A DNA stretch of 64,000 bases from Minisyncoccota bacterium (GTDB lineage: Bacteria; Patescibacteriota; Minisyncoccia; Phycocordibacterales; UBA9973): NCBI GenBank assembly GCA_018061035.1, contig JAGOUX010000001.1:6817-70816 (forward strand), given 5' to 3'. The position numbers were made by a program, and so were the translations under genes. The first letter of the stretch is position 1; every line of letters begins with the position of its first letter. This document shows, piece after piece, positions 35,864 to 64,000 of the stretch. The notes under the pieces were generated by a model, which did no database searches, had not been told where the DNA came from, and was given only the letters and a program-made list of their open reading frames with translations.

Positions 35864-37780
35864 ATGAAAATCGTTACCGTTATTCCGCTCGAAAAAACTG
35901 CATTTTCTGGAATTCTGACATATTTTACCTCTAAAGAATTGTCACCTGGAAGCATCGTTTCTATCGCTATTCGCAACAAAAAGATACTCGGCTTAGCTGT
36001 ATCTGTAGAAGAAGCTGAAGATATGAAAAGCGATATAAAGGGTATGGATTTCAATCTTCGAAAGATACTCGACGTCAAGGAGCATTCCCTATTTCGAGGT
36101 GAATTTCTTGATGCTGCTTTTATGACTAGCGAATACTTTGGAAGTACAAAAAATAGCGGACTTTCTCTCCTAATCCCCACTATACTAAAAACAGAGTACG
36201 ACAAAATTTCAAAATTTGTACCTGCCACAACTATTTCAAGTCAGCACTCTGAAATACGTCCAGAGAAATTGCTATTACAGATGCCGTTTGAAGAAAGAAT
36301 TTCAGTTTATAAAACTTTAATTCGTGAAAATTTTGCAGTCAAAAAATCTATCTTCATAGTCCTGCCGACCGAGCAAGATATAAAAGAAATTTCTGGGATA
36401 TTATCTAAGGGTATTGAACAATTCACTTATGCCTTGTACAGCAACCTAAGTGAAAAAAAGACACTACATGCAATACAAGGCATTATTACCAACGCTCATC
36501 CGATATTGATTTTGGGCACTGCACCATTTTTGTCTGTGCCACGTTATGATATCGGTACAATAATCCTCGAACACGAGAGCTCAAATGCGTACCGAAACAT
36601 TGGTCGCCCACACATGGATCAAAGAGTCTTCGCCGAAATATTTGCCTCAAAAATAAATGCTAAAATTATTTTTAGTGATACTATGCTTCGATTTGAAACT
36701 ATTGGCCGAGAAGAAATCGACAACTTTGCGCCGATGCATCCGATGTCTTACCGAATAGACCTGGCAAAAGAAATTCAAATTTTGGACAAAGGAGACAAAT
36801 TTAAGGTGCTCTCAGACGAGGTGATAAGAGAAATCACGGCTACATTAGAAAAAGGCGAGAATGCTTTTGTATTCGCCCTTCGAAAGGGCCTAGCGACTAT
36901 GACTGCATGTCGAGATTGTAGCCATGTAGTAGATTGCGAAAATTGTGGCGGGCCAGTGGTATTGTATTTATCTCGTGATGGCAAAAAACGAATGTTCATC
37001 TGTAATAGATGTAAAAATCAAATGAAAGATGATACCTATTGCAAAAGTTGTGGCTCATGGAATCTCATGCCACTAGGTATAGGCACCGACACAGTAGAAC
37101 TCGCTTTAAGAGAAATATTTCCTAAGATTAAATTATTTAAAATAGACAAAGAGGCAGTAAAAAGTTCCAAGGGTGCCGAAAAAATCGTTGAAGAATTTGA
37201 ATCAGAAAAAGGAGCTATTTTGATAGGAACAGAGATGGCCCTATATTATATTCACAAACAAATTCCCCTTTCGATAATATCTTCCTTCGAAACTCTATGG
37301 GGCATTCCGAATTTCAAAATGAGTGAAAAGGTGATCCAGCTTATATTGGCCCTCCATTCAAAATCTTCAAAAAAGTTGATTGTGCAAACCAAAAACCCAA
37401 CCGACCCGGTGATACAGGCAGTGCAATCTGGAAATCTAGTTTCTTTTGTGCGTAGTGAACTAGAAGACAGAAAAAACTTGGACTATCCTCCCTATAAGCG
37501 TTTCGTTAAAATTACCCACACTGGAGAAAAATCTGATTCTGTAAATGCCAAAGAAGCATTGTTAGAAGTATTCTCGCCATACCAGCCGGAAATTTTTGGA
37601 GGATTTATTGGTTCAAGTAAAAATAAATATGTCACCAATATGTTGATCAAAATCGAACCATCAAAATGGTCCCTACCCGAATTATCTACTGGTGGAACAT
37701 TGGACAAAAATCTCCTTTTGAAATTATTATCACTGCCTTCTGTTTTTGATATATATATCGACCCTGAAGATCTGCTGTAA
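35864..37780 (+). CDS. PriA-like primosomal protein with degenerate helicase motifs
   Basis: PriA-like N-terminal 3' DNA-binding domain and Cys-rich zinc region (CRDCSHVVDCENCGG...CNRCKNQ). Walker A position reads MPFEERIS, the DEEH box reads LEHE, and motif VI is absent. Confidence 0.6.
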   Translation: MKIVTVIPLEKTAFSGILTYFTSKELSPGSIVSIAIRNKKILGLAVSVEEAEDMKSDIKGMDFNLRKILDVKEHSLFRGEFLDAAFMTSEYFGSTKNSGLSLLIPTILKTEYDKISKFVPATTISSQHSEIRPEKLLLQMPFEERISVYKTLIRENFAVKKSIFIVLPTEQDIKEISGILSKGIEQFTYALYSNLSEKKTLHAIQGIITNAHPILILGTAPFLSVPRYDIGTIILEHESSNAYRNIGRPHMDQRVFAEIFASKINAKIIFSDTMLRFETIGREEIDNFAPMHPMSYRIDLAKEIQILDKGDKFKVLSDEVIREITATLEKGENAFVFALRKGLATMTACRDCSHVVDCENCGGPVVLYLSRDGKKRMFICNRCKNQMKDDTYCKSCGSWNLMPLGIGTDTVELALREIFPKIKLFKIDKEAVKSSKGAEKIVEEFESEKGAILIGTEMALYYIHKQIPLSIISSFETLWGIPNFKMSEKVIQLILALHSKSSKKLIVQTKNPTDPVIQAVQSGNLVSFVRSELEDRKNLDYPPYKRFVKITHTGEKSDSVNAKEALLEVFSPYQPEIFGGFIGSSKNKYVTNMLIKIEPSKWSLPELSTGGTLDKNLLLKLLSLPSVFDIYIDPEDLL

Positions 37781-37827
37781 TTGACTTAGCTCATATTTGA
37801 TGTAAAGTTCAGTCAGACATTATCCAT

Positions 37828-38088
37828 ATGGGGCACAGCGTCCCAAAAGGAGTACACGTGTGGCATGGACGGAATTACGTTCCCAGTTACCGCTTCATCA
37901 TGCGGTCACCTCGTCCAGGCGAAATGATCCTTGATGAAGTGACCACCTGCGCATCTCTCTTGGAGGCATGTAGATGGGCAGAAATGAATTTCCCGCAAGG
38001 GGGTACGCTGTGGCATGGGGATACAGCAGTTCTTTGTGTTCCTCAGATGAAGTTCGAAGCAGTAAATACGCAAGGGGCGGCGTCGTGA
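37828..38088 (+). CDS. Hypothetical protein in GC-rich island A
   Basis: 86-aa ORF with GC-rich codons in an otherwise AT-rich genome, followed by the GC hairpin GGGGCGGCGTCGTGAGAACGACCCGCCCC. Confidence 0.35.
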   Translation: MGHSVPKGVHVWHGRNYVPSYRFIMRSPRPGEMILDEVTTCASLLEACRWAEMNFPQGGTLWHGDTAVLCVPQMKFEAVNTQGAAS

Positions 38089-38112
38089 GAACGACCCGCC
38101 CCTAAAATATGC

Positions 38113-38802
38113 CTAAGACACAATTACAGTAAATTCCCCTCTTTGCTTTTCAGTATTTTTTACAAAATATTCGAGAACTTCGGCAGGAGTGCCAGTTTTA
38201 AATTCCTCATATATTTTTGTAAGTTCACGGGCAACACACACCTTCTTCTCTGGGCAAAATTTTATTAACGATTCCAAAGTTTTTAAAATTCTGTGGGGAG
38301 ATTCATAAAACACCATTGTCCGCTCTGATGATGCTATTTCTTTAAATAATGTTTCTCTACCCTTTTTGTGCGGTAAAAATCCAAGAAAAGTAAATTCATG
38401 AGTCGGAAGTCCTGAAGCCGAAAGCGCGGTGATCACAGCAGAAGCTCCAGGTATAGGCACCACCTCCACATTTGTAAAGGACTGTCCTTTACAAAATTTT
38501 TCTTTTATTTGTGAGACAAGCATGGCCCCTGGGTCAGATATGCCTGGCGTGCCTGCGTCTGAAACCAATGCCAAATCTTTACCTTCCTCAAGCATTTCAA
38601 AAATTTTATCTGTCTTGGACAACTTACTCTGCGCGTGGTAGCTCATAGTAGGCTTGCTGATAGCGTATTTATTTAAAAGATTTTTAGTTGTACGGGTGTC
38701 TTCGCAGAGTATTAGATCCACACTTTTAAGCGTTTCAATTGCCCGAAGAGTGATATCTCCCATATTGCCTATTGGTGTCGCTATTACATAAAATTTAGAC
38801 AT
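38113..38802 (-). CDS. rsmI: 16S rRNA 2'-O-methyltransferase RsmI-like (tetrapyrrole-methylase fold)
   Basis: N-terminus LYVIATPIGNMGDITLRAIETL; carries the same in-frame palindromic insert as dus. Confidence 0.8.
   Translation of the reverse strand: MSKFYVIATPIGNMGDITLRAIETLKSVDLILCEDTRTTKNLLNKYAISKPTMSYHAQSKLSKTDKIFEMLEEGKDLALVSDAGTPGISDPGAMLVSQIKEKFCKGQSFTNVEVVPIPGASAVITALSASGLPTHEFTFLGFLPHKKGRETLFKEIASSERTMVFYESPHRILKTLESLIKFCPEKKVCVARELTKIYEEFKTGTPAEVLEYFVKNTEKQRGEFTVIVS
38471..38494. repeat. Same 24-bp palindrome inside the rsmI CDS
   Basis: Identical sequence; encodes CKGQSFTN on the minus strand. Confidence 0.85.
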
Positions 38803-38907
38803 AGAAATAATATAGCATATAAATTATTAAAGGGGCCGCAACATACAGTCGCGACCCCTTCGAGATGATCCTCGAGTTTATTTTGTTTGCCCTCGTGGCA
38901 ATAGTGT

Positions 38908-39420
38908 TCAGCGCGGCCTGGAGAGCCAGAGATGAGGCACCAGCTCTTGGAGAGCCTCAGCTTGGGCCTCAGTGAGACCTACAGCCAGCACGGTGCCGAG
39001 CGCCGTCGTCATCAGTTTGGTCTCAGCGAAGGGGTCGCCATCCTGCATCAACCGCCTCCGGTTGAAGGCCGCCACGATGCGTGACGACTCCTCGTTATTC
39101 AGGCAAGGCGTCGTAGAGCTCATGGTGCAGGCCCCGACCAACAACGTCTCCTTTTTATCCGCAAACATCGCGTGGATGAACCAGGCATCCCCACCAGCAT
39201 TTATCTTTGTGACGTCTGTGCCGTACCTGGCCTTCGTCGGCTCGGGCAACAGCAATAGCGCAACGCAAAATGCTGCGCCAACACCACCGACAATCAATGT
39301 AGTGACCGCCAGCCACCACGCGAGGATCTGAGACTGTCCACCCGCCAGCCACTTGATTGAATCCGCCACACAAAAAGTGCAAACAAGCACCACCAACACT
39401 AACACGATCTTTCTGAACAT
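38908..39420 (-). CDS. Hypothetical two-TM membrane protein (GC-rich island B)
   Basis: GC-rich codon usage; likely start at MFRKIVLVLVV; GC hairpin terminator downstream at ~38831-38858. Confidence 0.4.
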   Translation of the reverse strand: MFRKIVLVLVVLVCTFCVADSIKWLAGGQSQILAWWLAVTTLIVGGVGAAFCVALLLLPEPTKARYGTDVTKINAGGDAWFIHAMFADKKETLLVGACTMSSTTPCLNNEESSRIVAAFNRRRLMQDGDPFAETKLMTTALGTVLAVGLTEAQAEALQELVPHLWLSRPR

Positions 39421-39598
39421 TTTTCCCCCTTGAGTTAATATACGATCCAAGATAAAGCACTAAAAATTCAAATATATTAAATTCTTAATGCTTTATCCAA
39501 GATTTTTTATTTTAAATGAGCAAAACATTATACTCTTGTAGTATAGCATAAATTATAGCAAAAGTCAATATTATTGTATTTAAAATAAAACTAATACA

Positions 39599-39629
39599 GG
39601 TCGGAGGAGAATGGTTTTCTCCGCCGACC
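39599..39629 (-). terminator. Rho-independent terminator for the island-B gene 39640..40272
   Basis: 13-bp stem GGTCGGAGGAGAA/TTCTCCGCCGACC, then a U-rich tract on the minus strand. Confidence 0.6.
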
Positions 39630-39639
39630 TGCTGTGTGA

Positions 39640-40272
39640 TTACAAGTGATTTTCAATCCGCAGGGCGGATTTGAAGAACCGGATCTTGTCATGCCGGTTC
39701 TTGGAATTGCAGCCCGCCTGGTACGCCAGGATGGCGTCCTTCTTGCGGACTACTCGCGCATCGGCCTCCAAGTTGGCCACCCGTCGATCTCCCTGCACCG
39801 GCATCGACGAAGCAGGTTCCGGATCAACACCCTTCCGCTGGAGTGACTCGAGAAGGCCGCGGTGCGACTTCTTGTGCTTCTCGGCCGAGCCGTTGTCCTC
39901 GAAGGCGACGAACCACTTCTTGAGTTCGTACAGGTTCCGGCACGCATCGAACCCAAGACGGAGTGCTCGACGTTCGTCCTCCGGCAGGTCGCGCTTGGCC
40001 AAGATCCGCTCGAACCTTGTACGAAACTTTTCCCGTCGTTCGAACGCCACGCGATTCTTCTTAAGGCCCGCGAGACAGGTGTTCACGAAATCGATGGCCT
40101 CCGTGATCACTTCGGGTTTTTTGTCCCCGAGAACCTCGGCGTACTCTGAATAATCCAGAGCCTGCCTAGCCGCTGAAGCCAACGCCGTTTTCAGGATGTT
40201 CATCCTGAGATTGGCGTCGACTTCCCCCCGCAGCCTGTCTGCCTGTGTCAAAAGCTCACTACGTTTCGACAT
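39640..40272 (-). CDS. Hypothetical charged/helical protein (GC-rich island B)
   Basis: 210-aa ORF with strongly GC-biased third codon positions; the antisense ORFs are Arg/Ser-rich artefacts. Confidence 0.5.
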   Translation of the reverse strand: MSKRSELLTQADRLRGEVDANLRMNILKTALASAARQALDYSEYAEVLGDKKPEVITEAIDFVNTCLAGLKKNRVAFERREKFRTRFERILAKRDLPEDERRALRLGFDACRNLYELKKWFVAFEDNGSAEKHKKSHRGLLESLQRKGVDPEPASSMPVQGDRRVANLEADARVVRKKDAILAYQAGCNSKNRHDKIRFFKSALRIENHL

Positions 40273-40315
40273 CTACCCCCCACTGAAAACTGTCAAACAA
40301 CAAACAACAAACAAC

Positions 40316-40346
40316 AAAAAACTAGTATTATTTATACTAGTTTTTT
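40316..40346 (-). terminator. Palindromic terminator after atpC (end of the atp operon)
   Basis: AAAAAACTAGTAT-TATTT-ATACTAGTTTTTT, perfect 13-bp arms flanked by A/T runs (bidirectional), next to an (AACAA)n simple repeat. Confidence 0.65.
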
Positions 40347-40361
40347 GGAAAAAGTCAATCT

Positions 40362-40808
40362 CTATTTTCTATATTTTCGCACCTTCCACTTGTCGGCAAT
40401 TTTTACACGTGTAAGTGATCGTTCGAGCTCAGACACGAAGTGCTCGTAGTCTACATGCTCTTTGTTTTCCATTAGCTTGTGAAGCTCTTCACTTCTCGCT
40501 ATGGCCTGAGCAATCTTTTCATCTCCAAGCTCGGATACATGTTCCGCGAAATCAGCAAGCACAGCAACCTCTGTCTCCCCGTGTGATCCGTGTTTGACTT
40601 CGAGAAATCCGCCAACAATAGCCATAGGTACATGCTCGCCATTTACTACAGCCACAACATCTCCAGATCCAAGAGCGGAAATAAGACCGATATGCTCAGG
40701 CAAGATAGTTATCTCCCCTTCTGTGGTAGGCAAAGAAACCTGATCCACATTTTCTTCGAGAATCAGTTTCTCTGGTGTCACTATCTTTAATTTTATTTGT
40801 TTTGACAT
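40362..40808 (-). CDS. atpC: ATP synthase F1 epsilon subunit
   Basis: Position and sequence in the atp operon. Confidence 0.8.
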   Translation of the reverse strand: MSKQIKLKIVTPEKLILEENVDQVSLPTTEGEITILPEHIGLISALGSGDVVAVVNGEHVPMAIVGGFLEVKHGSHGETEVAVLADFAEHVSELGDEKIAQAIARSEELHKLMENKEHVDYEHFVSELERSLTRVKIADKWKVRKYRK

Positions 40809-49300: not shown

Positions 49301-49475
49301 CTTCTTTACTTCTTCCCTTTTTCCTAAAAAGGACAAAAAACTATTTTATAAACGTAGAAACTCTTTTTTCGCTAAATGAGAAACTACCCCAAAAGTGTAA
49401 CACAGATTGCTAAAATAGCAATCAAGCAAATTAAATGGCGCCGCATGACCAAGTCAGGCGGCGCCAAATTTTTTG

Positions 49476-49709
49476 CTAATTCTCTAGATCAGAGCTGTCC
49501 CCGTAGTCGATGAGCGGAGGCGGCTCCTCGATATCTGGAACGGCGTCCATTGGGGACGTCTGACGAATGATCGGTACGCGCTCGATCTGTTCGAGCTGCC
49601 GCCTGATCGGGACATTTCCTCGTATAGCCTCTCGATCGAAGAAATCATCCACATCATGTGGCTCTCGACGCGCTCGCGTCACTTTTGCATCATTCCGAAT
49701 GCTACGCAT
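49476..49709 (-). CDS. Hypothetical acidic protein (GC-rich island C)
   Basis: 77-aa GC-rich ORF with the GC hairpin GGCGCCGC...GCGGCGCC plus a T-run downstream. Confidence 0.3.
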   Translation of the reverse strand: MRSIRNDAKVTRARREPHDVDDFFDREAIRGNVPIRRQLEQIERVPIIRQTSPMDAVPDIEEPPPLIDYGDSSDLEN

Positions 49710-49807
49710 TTACCACCACCCCCGAAAAAAACGAAAGAAAAACTGAACCAGATATATGTTACCTTAGAATTTATTAAACGACAACGTAAAACCCATTTTA
49801 CATATTA

Positions 49808-49836
49808 TTGACAATTTTCAAATATAGTGTAAGAAT
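49808..49836 (+). promoter_or_regulatory. Sigma70-like promoter for the island-C lipoprotein
   Basis: Perfect -35 TTGACA, 17-nt spacer, TGt-AAGAAT extended -10, then the RBS GGAGG 7 nt before the ATG at 49880. Confidence 0.55.
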
Positions 49837-49879
49837 AATCTCGATTAGGTTCGCATCCCGCGAGCTCGGAGGCACACCC

Positions 49880-50299
49880 ATGAAAGCCAAGACTGCTCTT
49901 TCCATTCTCGTCTTCCTGGCGTTGGGACTCAGCGTCGCCTGCTCGAAGTCTTCACCGACAGCACCGACACCAACCCCGGTCACCTACACGGTGGCTATCA
50001 CCCCGACTGCTTCCACGTTGACCTTCAAGGCCGGCGCGGGCGCTCCGCTGACCTTCACTGCCAGAATCACAGGGAGTGACGGTACCACAGTGGCACCATC
50101 CGCATCTGATGCGGTGGTGATCACCTTCGGCACGTCTGGGGTCGCGACAGCGACGATGCAGACGCCCGTGGCGACCAGCACCAGTCTGATCCAGACCGTC
50201 AGCTTTGGTGGCACGAAGGTCGGCACAACCACGGCAACGGCGACCATGTCCAACCCCAAGTACGTGGGGAACGTCACCGTGACCATCGTCGTGCAATAG
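49880..50299 (+). CDS. Lipoprotein with Ig-like (Big_2-like) Thr/Ala/Val-rich domain, GC-rich codon usage
   Basis: Signal peptide with lipobox LSVA-C; beta-rich T/A/V composition; strong third-position GC bias. Confidence 0.6.
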   Translation: MKAKTALSILVFLALGLSVACSKSSPTAPTPTPVTYTVAITPTASTLTFKAGAGAPLTFTARITGSDGTTVAPSASDAVVITFGTSGVATATMQTPVATSTSLIQTVSFGGTKVGTTTATATMSNPKYVGNVTVTIVVQ

Positions 50300-50319
50300 A
50301 CGGTGAGACAGAACAAAAA

Positions 50320-50348
50320 GCGAGAGTCTGCTCACGGCAGACTCTCGC
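50320..50348 (+). terminator. GC hairpin after the lipoprotein gene
   Basis: GCGAGAGTCTGC-tcacg-GCAGACTCTCGC, perfect 12-bp stem, no U-tract. Confidence 0.5.
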
Positions 50349-50600
50349 AATAACACAACGAACATAAGTTCGCATTATCTAAAGTCGTTAGCACCCCAAA
50401 AAAGCGGTACTAACGGCTTTTTTGATTTCTGTTATTTATTTCACAAACTGCAAACTCCTCACTCAAAAAACTTCCAACAACAAACTAACTATTAAAATAT
50501 ATTAAATCCAGATGGCATGCAAAAGGCCCCGTCGACATCTGTCGACGGGGCCGATTTTCTTCGTGCTCAAGCCTACCATTGGTTCTGAATGTGACCAATA

Positions 50601-50930
50601 TCACACCGGCGACATTTCTGCCTCGGAAGAACCATTACTGCTGTTTTTGTGGTGTCGGTGACGCCCTTGATACCTCGCAGGGTACTGGCTTTCGTTTTCG
50701 ACCAAACGTTCGAGAAGAAGGATAAACTTGTCGAGAATGCCGTGCTTATTCATCCGGCGTAATTCGACCATTGCCCAGTACTGGTCCTTATGCGAGAAGA
50801 ACAAATAGACCAGTCGCACACGCAACTTCTTGATTCTTTCTGCTTGTCGCTTTAGGCCTCCCTTTTTACGATGTGGGTATACATGCAGGTCAACACGATC
50901 CCTTTCGCACCGCCTCTGGTTCACATGCAT
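50601..50930 (-). CDS. Hypothetical protein, possible degenerate HNH-like remnant
   Basis: RRCERDRVDLHVYPHRKKGG loosely resembles the C-x2-C...DHxxP..GG segment of HNH nucleases but lacks the second Cys pair; GC hairpin terminator at 50525-50552. Confidence 0.25.
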   Translation of the reverse strand: MHVNQRRCERDRVDLHVYPHRKKGGLKRQAERIKKLRVRLVYLFFSHKDQYWAMVELRRMNKHGILDKFILLLERLVENESQYPARYQGRHRHHKNSSNGSSEAEMSPV

Positions 50931-51021
50931 CAGGTCTTCGCCTTTCGCTTAAACCAAAGTACACCAAGAACTAATTACAAAAATATTCTACATCAGTAAA
51001 AATTTTGTGCAATATAAGATT

Positions 51022-54492: not shown

Positions 54493-54623
54493 ACAGACAA
54501 GTATATACAAAAAATTTAAAAAAGCAAATAAAAAAGCCGTCAGTGCTCTTCCGTGGAAGTCTTAACGACTTTGACTATATGGACGCGGTAGGCAAGCCTT
54601 GTTCTGCCTGCCTACCGATATCT

Positions 54624-55070
54624 CTATCCGAACATGACCTCGAAGCCAGCTTCCTTGGCCTCGCGGACGAGGAATGCCTCCGTCATGGAATCATCCCCAA
54701 AACTCGGAAGAAAGAGCTTTGGCGCTGGCTTCTCGTCCGTATTCTTCCGACGGGCACGAGGCCGAGCTGAGACGAGTCCGTGCTCCTTCCACTCGTGCTC
54801 ACCCGTGTACTGAACCAGCCAGAGATACGACGCACCGATGCCAGCCACTTGATGACTCTCTGGGATGTACGGAACGCACGCCCAAGTGCAGCCGTGCAAG
54901 GCCGTACGAAGCTCCGGCAACGGATTGATCCGAAACCGGTAGCCGACATCGAGGTGCGACTGGATCAGTCGAAGCGCGTCCGACAAAACCAAGCGACCCC
55001 CGGGGTCAGGCTGTCCATCCAGCATCGCCATGAGACGATGATGAAAACTACGATTACTCTCTTTGTGCAT
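54624..55070 (-). CDS. Hypothetical protein (GC-rich island D)
   Basis: 148-aa GC-rich ORF; GC hairpin GGTAGGCA...TGCCTACC downstream. Confidence 0.35.
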   Translation of the reverse strand: MHKESNRSFHHRLMAMLDGQPDPGGRLVLSDALRLIQSHLDVGYRFRINPLPELRTALHGCTWACVPYIPESHQVAGIGASYLWLVQYTGEHEWKEHGLVSARPRARRKNTDEKPAPKLFLPSFGDDSMTEAFLVREAKEAGFEVMFG

Positions 55071-55188
55071 GGGGCTCTCCCACAGTCTCGCGGACTAGCT
55101 CACCCTTGGAACGATTCCCTCGAAGCTCTGGTGACGAGCTTGTGCATTACGAAAATTACCATACCACATTTATAGGAAAAAGACAACC

Positions 55189-63220: not shown

Positions 63221-63369
63221 ACTATTAACATAATATAAAATTAGTATCCAATCCTTCACCGAAGAGCCCAATCTCCATCGGTACTTTTTCGTATTTGACA
63301 TTCATACGACTAGAATGCAGAATTGAAACGAGTGTACATCTAAATGGCCATTTTGGCCGGAAAGGTAAT

Positions 63370-63654
63370 ATGGCAGCGATTCCAAAGATTAAGGACGAGG
63401 TGTTCTTCAACGTCAACGAGGAAGGGATCCGCGCAGTTGGGGTCACGAATGAGGCCGGCGTCTTCATCGACGTCATGCCCGAAGAACCTCCTCAGGGCGC
63501 CGACGTGAGCGAAGCCGATCTAGCCAAGTGGCTGGCGGATGAGATCGATCCGACTGGCTTCAGCCAGATTGAGGTCGTGAAGGTCAAAAACGATCCGTTG
63601 ACCTTCAGAATTGATGACGCCAAAACTGGCGAGCTCCTTGACGCCAGCGAGTAG
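63370..63654 (+). CDS. Hypothetical acidic protein (GC-rich island E)
   Basis: 94-aa GC-rich ORF with SD GGAAAGG 5 nt upstream, a TTGACA -35-like hexamer at 63295, and a GC hairpin at 63665-63690 downstream. Confidence 0.4.
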   Translation: MAAIPKIKDEVFFNVNEEGIRAVGVTNEAGVFIDVMPEEPPQGADVSEADLAKWLADEIDPTGFSQIEVVKVKNDPLTFRIDDAKTGELLDASE

Positions 63655-64000
63655 ACAAGAAGATAGGGTGGCGACCACACGGTCGCCACCCTCGCGAGAA
63701 AATATATCAAGCACCGAAGAGCATATGCCCGATCGGTGCTTTCTTCGTTTTACCCTTAATGTGCTAAAATATATGGACTTGTCCCGTTATAAATTTAGCT
63801 CGCGGGATTTTGTAAATAAAGATTATTAATTAAAATTTATAATGGGATGCAAATTATTTGGATATTATTGGGAGTTATCGCAGGAGGCCTAGTAGCATAT
63901 GCTATCCTAGGAAAAAAGAGAGATGATTCAAATGGAGCCAAGGATCAATCCTTACTTCTTCTTCAGCAACAAATGGCCGAGCTCGCGAGAGCCCTTGATT

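Follow-up and report, generated by a model that had tools for sequence, protein, structure and literature searches.

Two GC-rich orphan genes between atpC and rsmI of a Nomurabacteria genome: candidate self-contained units at a gene-turnover hotspot

How does a gene that looks foreign to its genome come to stand between two housekeeping genes, and do two such genes side by side make up one island or two separate units? The question is raised by a pair of GC-rich open reading frames (ORFs), named here A210 and B170 after the lengths of their predicted products in amino acids (aa), which lie between atpC and rsmI in a 64,000-nucleotide (nt) stretch of a Minisyncoccota bacterium (contig JAGOUX010000001.1; "the window" from here on, with all positions given in its own coordinates). 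An initial annotation, made from the sequence alone, had treated the two as one island inserted between the atp operon terminator and rsmI. What seems moderately probable instead, as an account of both the architecture and the pattern of gain and loss, is that two independent, self-contained accessory transcription units are stacked in a hotspot and come and go by recombination. Genomes of the Candidate Phyla Radiation (CPR)/Patescibacteria are tiny and have a large share of genes without a known function, and the entry and exit of strain-specific genes are poorly understood in them; this locus would provide a base-pair-resolved case of single-gene, self-expressed units turning over at duplicated promoter elements.

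The atpC-rsmI junction and the histories of its two extra genes

Relatives of the RsmI protein (76-87% identity in 80 genomes) place the window in Candidatus Nomurabacteria/Paceibacterota, within the CPR. The 80 related loci almost all keep the gene order atpD-atpC-rsmI. Only 2-40 nt separate the atpC stop codon from the rsmI start in about half of these loci, the tight junctions (often 2-7 nt) typically reading ...AAATAAATGTCT..., and in the other half 400-1600 bp lie between the two genes, filled with unrelated ORFs that include several other GC-rich ORFs without relatives (ORFans) and, judged by eye, some whose products resemble PEBP-type proteins, others for a membrane protein seen repeatedly, and a small pair of genes. 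For atpC to lie directly against rsmI is both the ancestral and the most frequent arrangement and, because relatives carry differing, unrelated ORFs there, the junction is a gene-turnover hotspot. The four genes that matter most are the following:

40362..40808, minus strand: atpC (ATP synthase epsilon; Pfam ATP-synt_DE_N on the identical product), the upstream core flank of the hotspot
39640..40272, minus strand: the A210 ORF, 210 aa
38908..39420, minus strand: the B170 ORF, 170 aa from its ATG (the ORF listing reaches a TTG at 39450)
38113..38802, minus strand: rsmI (16S rRNA 2'-O-methyltransferase, TP_methylase; Pfam PF00590 on the identical product), the downstream core flank

Measured against the common junction state, the extra DNA amounts to 1,559 bp (38803-40361), AT-rich stretches included, which is wider than the 38828-40290 originally delimited. 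The arrangement is found identically in an NCBI (GCA_020047435.1) and a Logan (SRR11088468) assembly and, as the junction recurs in independent assemblies, an assembly artefact was ruled out. In NCBI the two products are recorded as hypothetical proteins from a 'Candidatus Pacebacteria' metagenome-assembled genome (locus tags KBD55_00275 and KBD55_00280). The spot holds only the two ORFans and no integrase, transposase or conjugation genes, and no mobility gene turned up among the window ORFs scanned, which are housekeeping or family-less (not every window ORF was scanned). Among the relatives, one junction (L051) consists of 73 bp that are nearly all one long perfect palindrome (CCTCCAGACGTTGGACGTCTG...CAGACGTCCAACGTCTGGAGG), and another (L011, 7519-7995) holds a small gene pair (69 aa and 85 aa) resembling a toxin-antitoxin module.

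That both genes are GC-rich is borne out by their composition. A210 has a GC content of 0.58 (0.61, 0.39 and 0.72 at first, second and third codon positions, the last of these being GC3), and B170 has 0.58 with a GC3 of 0.70, against medians of 0.41 for GC and 0.35 for GC3 (range 0.25-0.49) in 30 host genes and a window mean GC of 40.7%. The encoded proteins follow suit, the share of glycine, alanine, arginine and proline (GARP) being 0.28-0.30 (host median 0.23) and R/(R+K) 0.53-0.57 (host 0.30). Accessory and ORFan genes are usually AT-rich, and the units here are the reverse, being GC-richer than their host. With a deviating composition and an absence from the atpC-rsmI junction of most relatives, the genes are indeed extra and foreign-looking, as had been supposed. 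Both reading frames are real coding sequences (CDSs), since the ratio of nonsynonymous to synonymous divergence (dN/dS) is 0.28 for B170 and 0.18 for the A210 family.

The evidence that carries the two-unit account comes from natural variants of the locus, recovered by exact-protein look-ups. Two of them, L089 (JGI 3300043411) and L090 (Logan SRR35185575), read atpC-B170-rsmI without A210, with a B170 CDS identical to that of the window, and in their A210-less junction ...AAATAGAG is joined straight to ATTGACTTTTGCTATAAT, at a ATTGACTTTT repeat. Window and L089 show no differences over 513 nt of B170 or 393 nt of rsmI, and differ at 33 of 634 positions on the atpC side. A third variant, L088 (Logan SRR12762291), has the gene order atpC-A210-B171, and here A210 differs from the window at only 3 of 633 nt (99.5% identical; synonymous divergence, dS, 0.007), as against 38 of 447 for atpC (91.4% identical; dS 0.43, dN/dS 0.04) and about 97 of 513 for B170 (81% identical; dS 0.51, dN/dS 0.28), whose L088 homologue, P0006, is 77% identical as a protein, the variable patch between the two alleles lying at about residues 88-110. 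The excess identity of A210 has a Fisher p of 3e-12 versus atpC and 2e-32 versus B170. Near-identity begins at the stop codon of atpC and ends at the start codon of B170 (~40368 to 39427), and the recombination breakpoints coincide with the unit borders.

As a near-identical A210 lies amid flanks that are 9-19% diverged, A210 is best read as recently exchanged between diverged strains and polymorphic for presence, and B170, by the same comparisons, as a resident since the split of the window and L088 strains that has diverged along with its flanks and evolves fast under purifying selection. The possibility that L088, L089 and L090 are assembly chimeras was rejected, because the L088 allele of A210 has three CDS differences and repeat lengths of its own, and because the A210-less junction occurs in two independent samples. 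Exact AtpC and RsmI look-ups yielded no further junction variants. At a greater distance, the window's RsmI is 92% identical to that of a contig called L084 and 78% to that of another, L086, while AtpC and AtpG pair L084 with L086 (76%) and leave the window at 66-71% (AtpC of window and L084, 71%); this phylogenetic incongruence of RsmI and AtpC indicates recombination across the hotspot at deeper levels too.

These histories bear directly on whether both genes arrived together, in a single recent horizontal transfer from one GC-rich donor, and have simply not been ameliorated yet. Their equal GC content, similar GC3 and GC-type amino-acid usage are what such an event would leave behind, and the whole 1,559 bp is absent from most relatives. 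Such a joint arrival is nevertheless very unlikely, given that B170 stands alone, with no A210, in two independent samples, that L084 and L086 each have an A210 family member but no B170, that identity between window and L088 is so unequal for the two genes, and that the A210 family resides at this junction in genomes with synonymously saturated core genes. The one island of the initial annotation is thus replaced by two independent units with different histories.

Anatomy of the two candidate transcription units

Besides the reading frames, the extra DNA comprises the following predicted elements, listed in the direction of transcription:

40350..40359, minus strand: direct repeat copy 1, ATTGACTTTT, which holds the -35-like TTGACT of the putative A210 promoter; left border of the A210 cassette
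40315..40347, minus strand: AT-rich hairpin of 14 perfect base pairs, then a U-rich (UUGU)n run (-14.7 kcal/mol, z-score (z) -5.7); resembles an atp terminator
40273..40314, minus strand: A210 leader with a (TTGT)n microsatellite and a Shine-Dalgarno-like G-run (GGGGGG, 40276-40281)
39597..39639, minus strand: A210 3' untranslated region (3'UTR) with the motif TCACACAGC, then a GC-rich putative terminator hairpin (arms 39597-39611/39617-39631)
39560..39569, minus strand: direct repeat copy 2, ATTGACTTTT, the -35 of the putative B170 promoter; right border of the A210 cassette
39421..39559, minus strand: B170 -10 region TGCTATACT (hexamer 39540-39545) and a ~120-nt 5' leader
38829..38861, minus strand: GC-rich putative B170 terminator hairpin (14 pairs, 8 of them GC; -29.2 kcal/mol, z -5.4) with a U-rich tail
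38803..38828, minus strand: extended -10-like promoter TATGCTATATT (38809-38819), just upstream of rsmI

The 10-mer ATTGACTTTT occurs exactly twice in the 64 kb, and the A210 unit measures 780 bp between its copies plus one 10-bp repeat; in L084 and L086, too, this 10-mer comes after the stop codon of atpC. A -10-like TATAAAT (~40336-40330) lies 13 nt past the first copy, overlapping the 5' arm and loop of the AT-rich hairpin. Since this hairpin is missing from the A210-less L089, the supposed atp terminator belongs to the A210 cassette and cannot serve as the pre-existing boundary that it had been taken for. Read-through from the atp operon would stop at the hairpin, and transcripts started at the overlapping A210 promoter would lack its 5' arm and so escape termination. 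At the far end, the A210 terminator hairpin (-26.5 kcal/mol, z -7.8) is followed by a U-rich tail; TCACACNNC is not a general terminator motif across the window, and the palindrome at the left end of the unit has no second copy in it. The (TTGT)n tract (40282-40312) and the G-run before the A210 start have other lengths in L088 than in the window, and could, to go by this sequence variation, modulate A210 expression by slippage.

For B170, the promoter candidate is TTGACT-17-TATACT with TG upstream (39568-39540; scan score 10/12 plus the TG), which no other sigma-70-like site in the region surpasses. It lies in the AT-rich spacer (39421-39596, GC 0.22) that the initial annotation had described as host-type DNA possibly carrying a promoter: the promoter part of that description holds up, whereas the host-type part does not, as relatives have no such spacer and the DNA is the promoter and leader of B170 itself. 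The leader contains a long 26-bp hairpin, found as an inverted repeat (~39437-39511; -33.6 kcal/mol, z -6.0), and the segment 39427-39569 is identical in window and L088, L089 differing only at 39421. That each gene has a GC hairpin terminator of its own likewise stands, both hairpins being stable by prediction and followed by U-rich tails. An Rfam search gave no match at gathering score in the window except four tRNAs, and none at E <= 1 in 37700-40500.

Downstream of B170, an extended -10 (TGCTATATT) directly precedes rsmI, so that the B170 unit is bordered by an imperfect direct repeat of its own -10 region (39540-39556), ATAATTTATGCTATACT and ATAATTTATATGCTATATT; exact matches to TATGCTATAYT occur in the window only at these two places, and CCCCTTTAATAATTTATAT near the pre-rsmI promoter is common to window and L086. 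The last unit of the stack would in this way supply rsmI with an extended -10 promoter.

Two observations on the B170 unit stand apart. The leader hairpin is identical in window, L088 and L089 despite the 19% divergence of B170 in L088, which may make it a leader or stability element, or else just a part of the recently exchanged tract; and 15 differences between window and L089 are clustered at 38839-38880 (B170 3'UTR and terminator), the surrounding 900 bp being otherwise identical.

How might such units move? They would swap between strains by homologous recombination through the flanking core genes and the short promoter repeats, loss would occur by repeat-mediated deletion, and no dedicated recombinase would take part. 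The obvious competitor is a transposon-, MITE- (miniature inverted-repeat transposable element) or integron-type cassette with a dedicated enzyme, the 10-bp repeat then being a target-site duplication. A 10-bp direct repeat exactly at the edges of the A210 unit, an imperfect repeat of 17-19 bp on either side of the B170 unit and GC-rich parts that end in a loosely attC-like hairpin would all suit it, but the units lack terminal inverted repeats pairing the two ends, their repeat lengths differ, the border is a promoter -35 box and not GTTRRRY, each unit carries its own promoter, neither has another copy in the window, and no transposase or integrase was seen among the ORFs scanned (which, as said, were not all of the window's ORFs), which makes this explanation most improbable. 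An insertion sequence, MITE or transposon was rejected as a candidate, with only a direct repeat present, no paired-end inverted repeat and a single copy in the window. The likeness to integron gene cassettes goes as far as single-ORF units with a hairpin end, stacked head to tail at one site; unlike such cassettes, the border here is ATTGACTTTT with no attC core, the hairpins are terminators of 33-35 nt without a GTTRRRY flank, the units have promoters of their own, and no intI was found among the ORFs scanned.

Nor does the arrangement resemble a two-gene functional module, i.e., a toxin-antitoxin or toxin-immunity pair, for which one could cite two small adjacent genes on the same strand, one encoding a predicted cytoplasmic and the other a membrane protein. 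Separate promoters and terminators, the occurrence of each gene without the other, discordant histories and the lack of any PADLOC or toxin-antitoxin family match render it extremely improbable, and a type II toxin-antitoxin pair was rejected outright, as a terminator and a promoter lie between the genes and each is found alone.

A closer parallel is offered by the morons of phages, defined by their own promoter and terminator and a deviant GC content (PMC3594210), and each of the two units is, as far as its predicted elements go, moron-like: a GC-rich ORF set between a promoter and a GC-rich terminator hairpin. As in phage morons such as HK97 gene 15 (PMC3594210), an independent unit with promoter and intrinsic terminator (here at the sequence level only) has a GC content unlike that of its neighbours, stands between genes that are adjacent in relatives, and encodes an accessory product of a kind that is often small or membrane-bound. 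Unlike them, the units here sit in a cellular chromosome between housekeeping genes, have no phage homology that could be found, and, in the case of the A210 family, are retained at one site across sister species. A prophage remnant, or true morons from a phage of CPR bacteria, could explain the architecture and deviant GC, which fit the published description (PMC3594210), and B170 does resemble, in kind only, small superinfection-exclusion membrane proteins; still, with no phage genes beside the units (the flanks being the atp operon and rsmI/priA), no reproducible PHROG match, and empty searches of phage records and viral contigs, we regard a phage origin as scarcely probable. The single PHROG hit (phrog_36584, E 6e-4, to the hydrophobic segment of B170 only) was dismissed, since the 77% identical homologue P0006 does not reproduce it.

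The chromosomal setting has a precedent of its own. Hotspots of horizontal gene transfer (HGT) without mobile elements, flanked by recombining core genes, have been described by Oliveira et al. 2017 (PMC5635113), and the atpC-rsmI interval shares with them a fast turnover between core genes (80 loci), an absence of mobility genes, and recombination in the flanking core genes, seen as mosaic identity among window, L088 and L089 and as RsmI-AtpC incongruence. It differs from them in its single-gene scale, in the streamlined CPR genome around it and in having duplicated promoter elements for borders. DNA gained by HGT in CPR genomes, most of it passed between Patescibacteria, has also been surveyed (PMC12455944), with islands and genes found by standard detectors; the parts of that account available to us do not mention single-ORFan, promoter-bounded, persistently GC-rich units.

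The A210 family and the source of GC-rich coding sequence

The second question that the locus raises is where such GC-rich coding sequence comes from. A word-indexed search of 5.8 billion proteins matched A210 only to itself, and a full HMMER pass over 1.84 billion cluster representatives returned two distant homologues, P0002 and P0003 (E ~4e-6, 27-28% identity), to which a profile search added a third, P0004. P0003 (366 aa) and P0004 (368 aa), which have an extra C-terminal domain beyond A210, occupy precisely the atpC-rsmI interval of L084 and L086, two other contigs that resemble Nomurabacteria, neither of which carries B170. A210 thus seems to found a tiny, five-member orphan family (window, L088 allele, P0002, P0003 and P0004) that is limited, on present sequence matches, to a subclade of Nomurabacteria. 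AtpD is 89-91% identical among window, L084 and L086, and at most 88% identical in the 80 species representatives, all of which are without the A210 family.

The site is shared down to its details. The upstream flank common to window, L084 and L086 consists of the atpC stop, ATTGACTTTT, 13 nt, TATAAYT, a hairpin (at the same position, with a different sequence) and TTTTTTG, and the downstream flank of TCACAC(N3) immediately 5' of a GC hairpin; downstream of P0002 there is TCACAACC and then a hairpin. The first 23 residues of A210 align with the homologues, which, together with the G-rich ribosome-binding site, favours the 210-aa start over the 187-aa protein annotated by NCBI (MBP9711460.1, start at Met24). 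The contig of P0002 (L083, GCA_021733325.1; 1.2 kb, GC 0.53) also holds a second orphan ORF of high GC, beyond a spacer (GC 0.41) that carries a TTGACA-type promoter, and may be a glimpse of a donor-type context, although it is too short to tell.

The homologues in L084 and L086 have a GC of 0.54-0.55 and a GC3 of 0.62-0.64, with neighbouring genes at about 0.3-0.4, and between the two contigs 59% of synonymous sites differ in this family (dN/dS 0.18) with GC3 near 0.63 in both. In window, L084 and L086 the core genes have reached, or nearly reached, saturation at synonymous sites (proportion of synonymous differences, pS, 0.63-0.84). A simple recent arrival of A210 in the lineage is therefore not what is seen: GC-rich homologues hold the same site in sister genomes whose core genes are synonymously saturated. 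By a rough two-state estimate, a gene acquired once in the common ancestor would by now be near the GC3 of the host, and a GC3 of 0.62-0.72 therefore requires either that such genes were imported repeatedly from a GC-rich pool or that their GC is actively maintained.

Could the genes, then, simply be ancient residents, inherited vertically at fixed sites, whose GC is maintained by codon- or mRNA-level selection or by biased gene conversion? Site, promoter, hairpin and 3'UTR motifs match in window, L084 and L086, the A210 family tree is congruent with the atp side, GC3 has stayed near 0.63 in both L084 and L086 despite their synonymous divergence, and a second GC-rich family (the 109-aa ORF described below) is syntenic between window and L086. 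We nonetheless consider this unlikely. High GC (0.58) is limited to the CDSs with their terminators, the 5' regions within the units stay at 0.22-0.30, and the flanking core genes show no GC gradient, so that regional GC-biased conversion was rejected; unrelated GC-rich ORFans replace each other at hotspots (e.g., a 215-aa gene of L084 at the site between prfA and an RNA recognition motif (RRM) protein gene); A210 carries a signature of recent transfer between strains; and a GC-type amino-acid composition is not producible by codon-level selection alone.

We therefore favour a GC-rich pool over maintenance in place, on account of the recent-transfer signature of A210 and of the way in which unrelated GC-rich ORFans replace one another at shared sites, of the GC-type amino-acid make-up together with AT-rich 5' regions and gradient-free flanks, and of L083, a contig of GC 0.53 with two GC-rich genes and a promoter-bearing spacer between them. 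The coding parts of the two units would derive from a pool circulating among Nomurabacteria, and its source could be an unsampled GC-rich replicon or higher-GC relatives within the Patescibacteria.

Several results weigh against the account of two exchangeable units drawn from such a pool. The donor replicon was not found: a tblastn search of 50,697 phage records and scans of IMG/VR viral contigs came back empty, and a scan of metagenome contigs with the family alignment and an exact 24-mer gave neither a donor nor an alternative context. A family that keeps the same site at saturated dS could mean long residence, in which case a GC3 of 0.62-0.72 is left unexplained by simple acquisition, and the presence and absence of A210 is compatible with insertion and deletion alike. 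The proposed A210 promoter is without the canonical -7 T and was not reported by a simple promoter scan. Lastly, Pfam, NCBIfam, PHROGs and PADLOC gave nothing significant for A210, B170 and their homologues, and a PDB sequence search had no match for the ORF products.

A bolder extension, to which only a small chance is given, is that this subclade of Nomurabacteria reserves fixed sites between genes as a separate compartment for orphan genes that are rich in GC and evolve fast, and that these are supplied by a so far unrecognised replicon or virus of high GC through promoter-targeted insertion. One unit would then duplicate the -35 box and the next the extended -10, so that inserted and displaced genes would all keep promoters, and, if this were true, the A210 family with its TCACAC and hairpin would mark a new type of single-gene mobile cassette in the CPR. 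L084 and L086 have GC-rich ORFs at intergenic sites matching those of the window, and 13 of the 76 loci scanned have at least one such ORF. The persistence of a GC3 about 0.35 above that of the host in several orphan genes at shared sites is the single truly odd trait here, and an unseen GC-rich donor replicon or active maintenance, whichever were behind it, would give new insight into gene flow in episymbiotic bacteria. The yield at present is modest, i.e., two new orphan protein families, with the A210 family as a candidate domain of unknown function.

Possible functions and further GC-rich segments

The description of the 210-aa product as helical, charged and without a recognisable family agrees with the family library scans, in which no homology to a common housekeeping family came up. 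A210 is basic (isoelectric point, pI, 9.75), 36% charged, and predicted to be all-helical and cytoplasmic, with low confidence for residues 127-168, and an AlphaFold2 (AF2) model of A210 alone (pLDDT 57) was too poor for a fold search. For B170, hydropathy shows a pair of hydrophobic helices at the N-terminus and, after them, a soluble domain of ~110 aa at the C-terminus; this domain would face the cytoplasm by the positive-inside rule. That both are strain-specific accessory factors in conflict or interaction, e.g., in phage exclusion or host-cell interaction, is a tentative guess with the odds against it, made because of the hotspot location, strain variability, fast evolution and mutual independence of the two. 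In this guess A210 would act by binding a nucleic acid or a protein partner, and not as an enzyme, with B170 as a factor anchored in the membrane.

Four further segments of the window are GC-rich (37801-38120, 49421-50960, 54541-55160 and 63341-63760), and Pfam found no domain in any ORF tested from them. The first (320 bp, GC 0.51) lies between the convergent priA and rsmI and has a plus-strand ORF of 86 aa (37828-38088), with TTGACT-16-TAAAGT upstream and a GC hairpin (GGGGCGGCGTCGTGAGAACGACCCGCCCC) downstream; no gene with that product is on record, and a GC-rich ORF of 69 aa occupies the analogous site in L084. The second, between the gene of an RRM RNA-binding protein and prfA, contains ORFs of 77, 163 and 109 aa. 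The product of the 163-aa ORF is T/A/P-rich with a signal- or lipoprotein-like N-terminus, and the 109-aa ORF (50601-50930) has a 40% identical, tandem-duplicated homologue of 172 aa at the prfA-RRM site in L086, the same site in L084 being taken by the unrelated GC-rich 215-aa gene mentioned above. The last two segments are likewise set between housekeeping genes: 63341-63760 holds an ORF of ~95-119 aa with a GC3 of 0.63-0.71, and 54541-55160 one of 148 aa with a GC3 of 0.66, found in the same context in NCBI and Logan assemblies.

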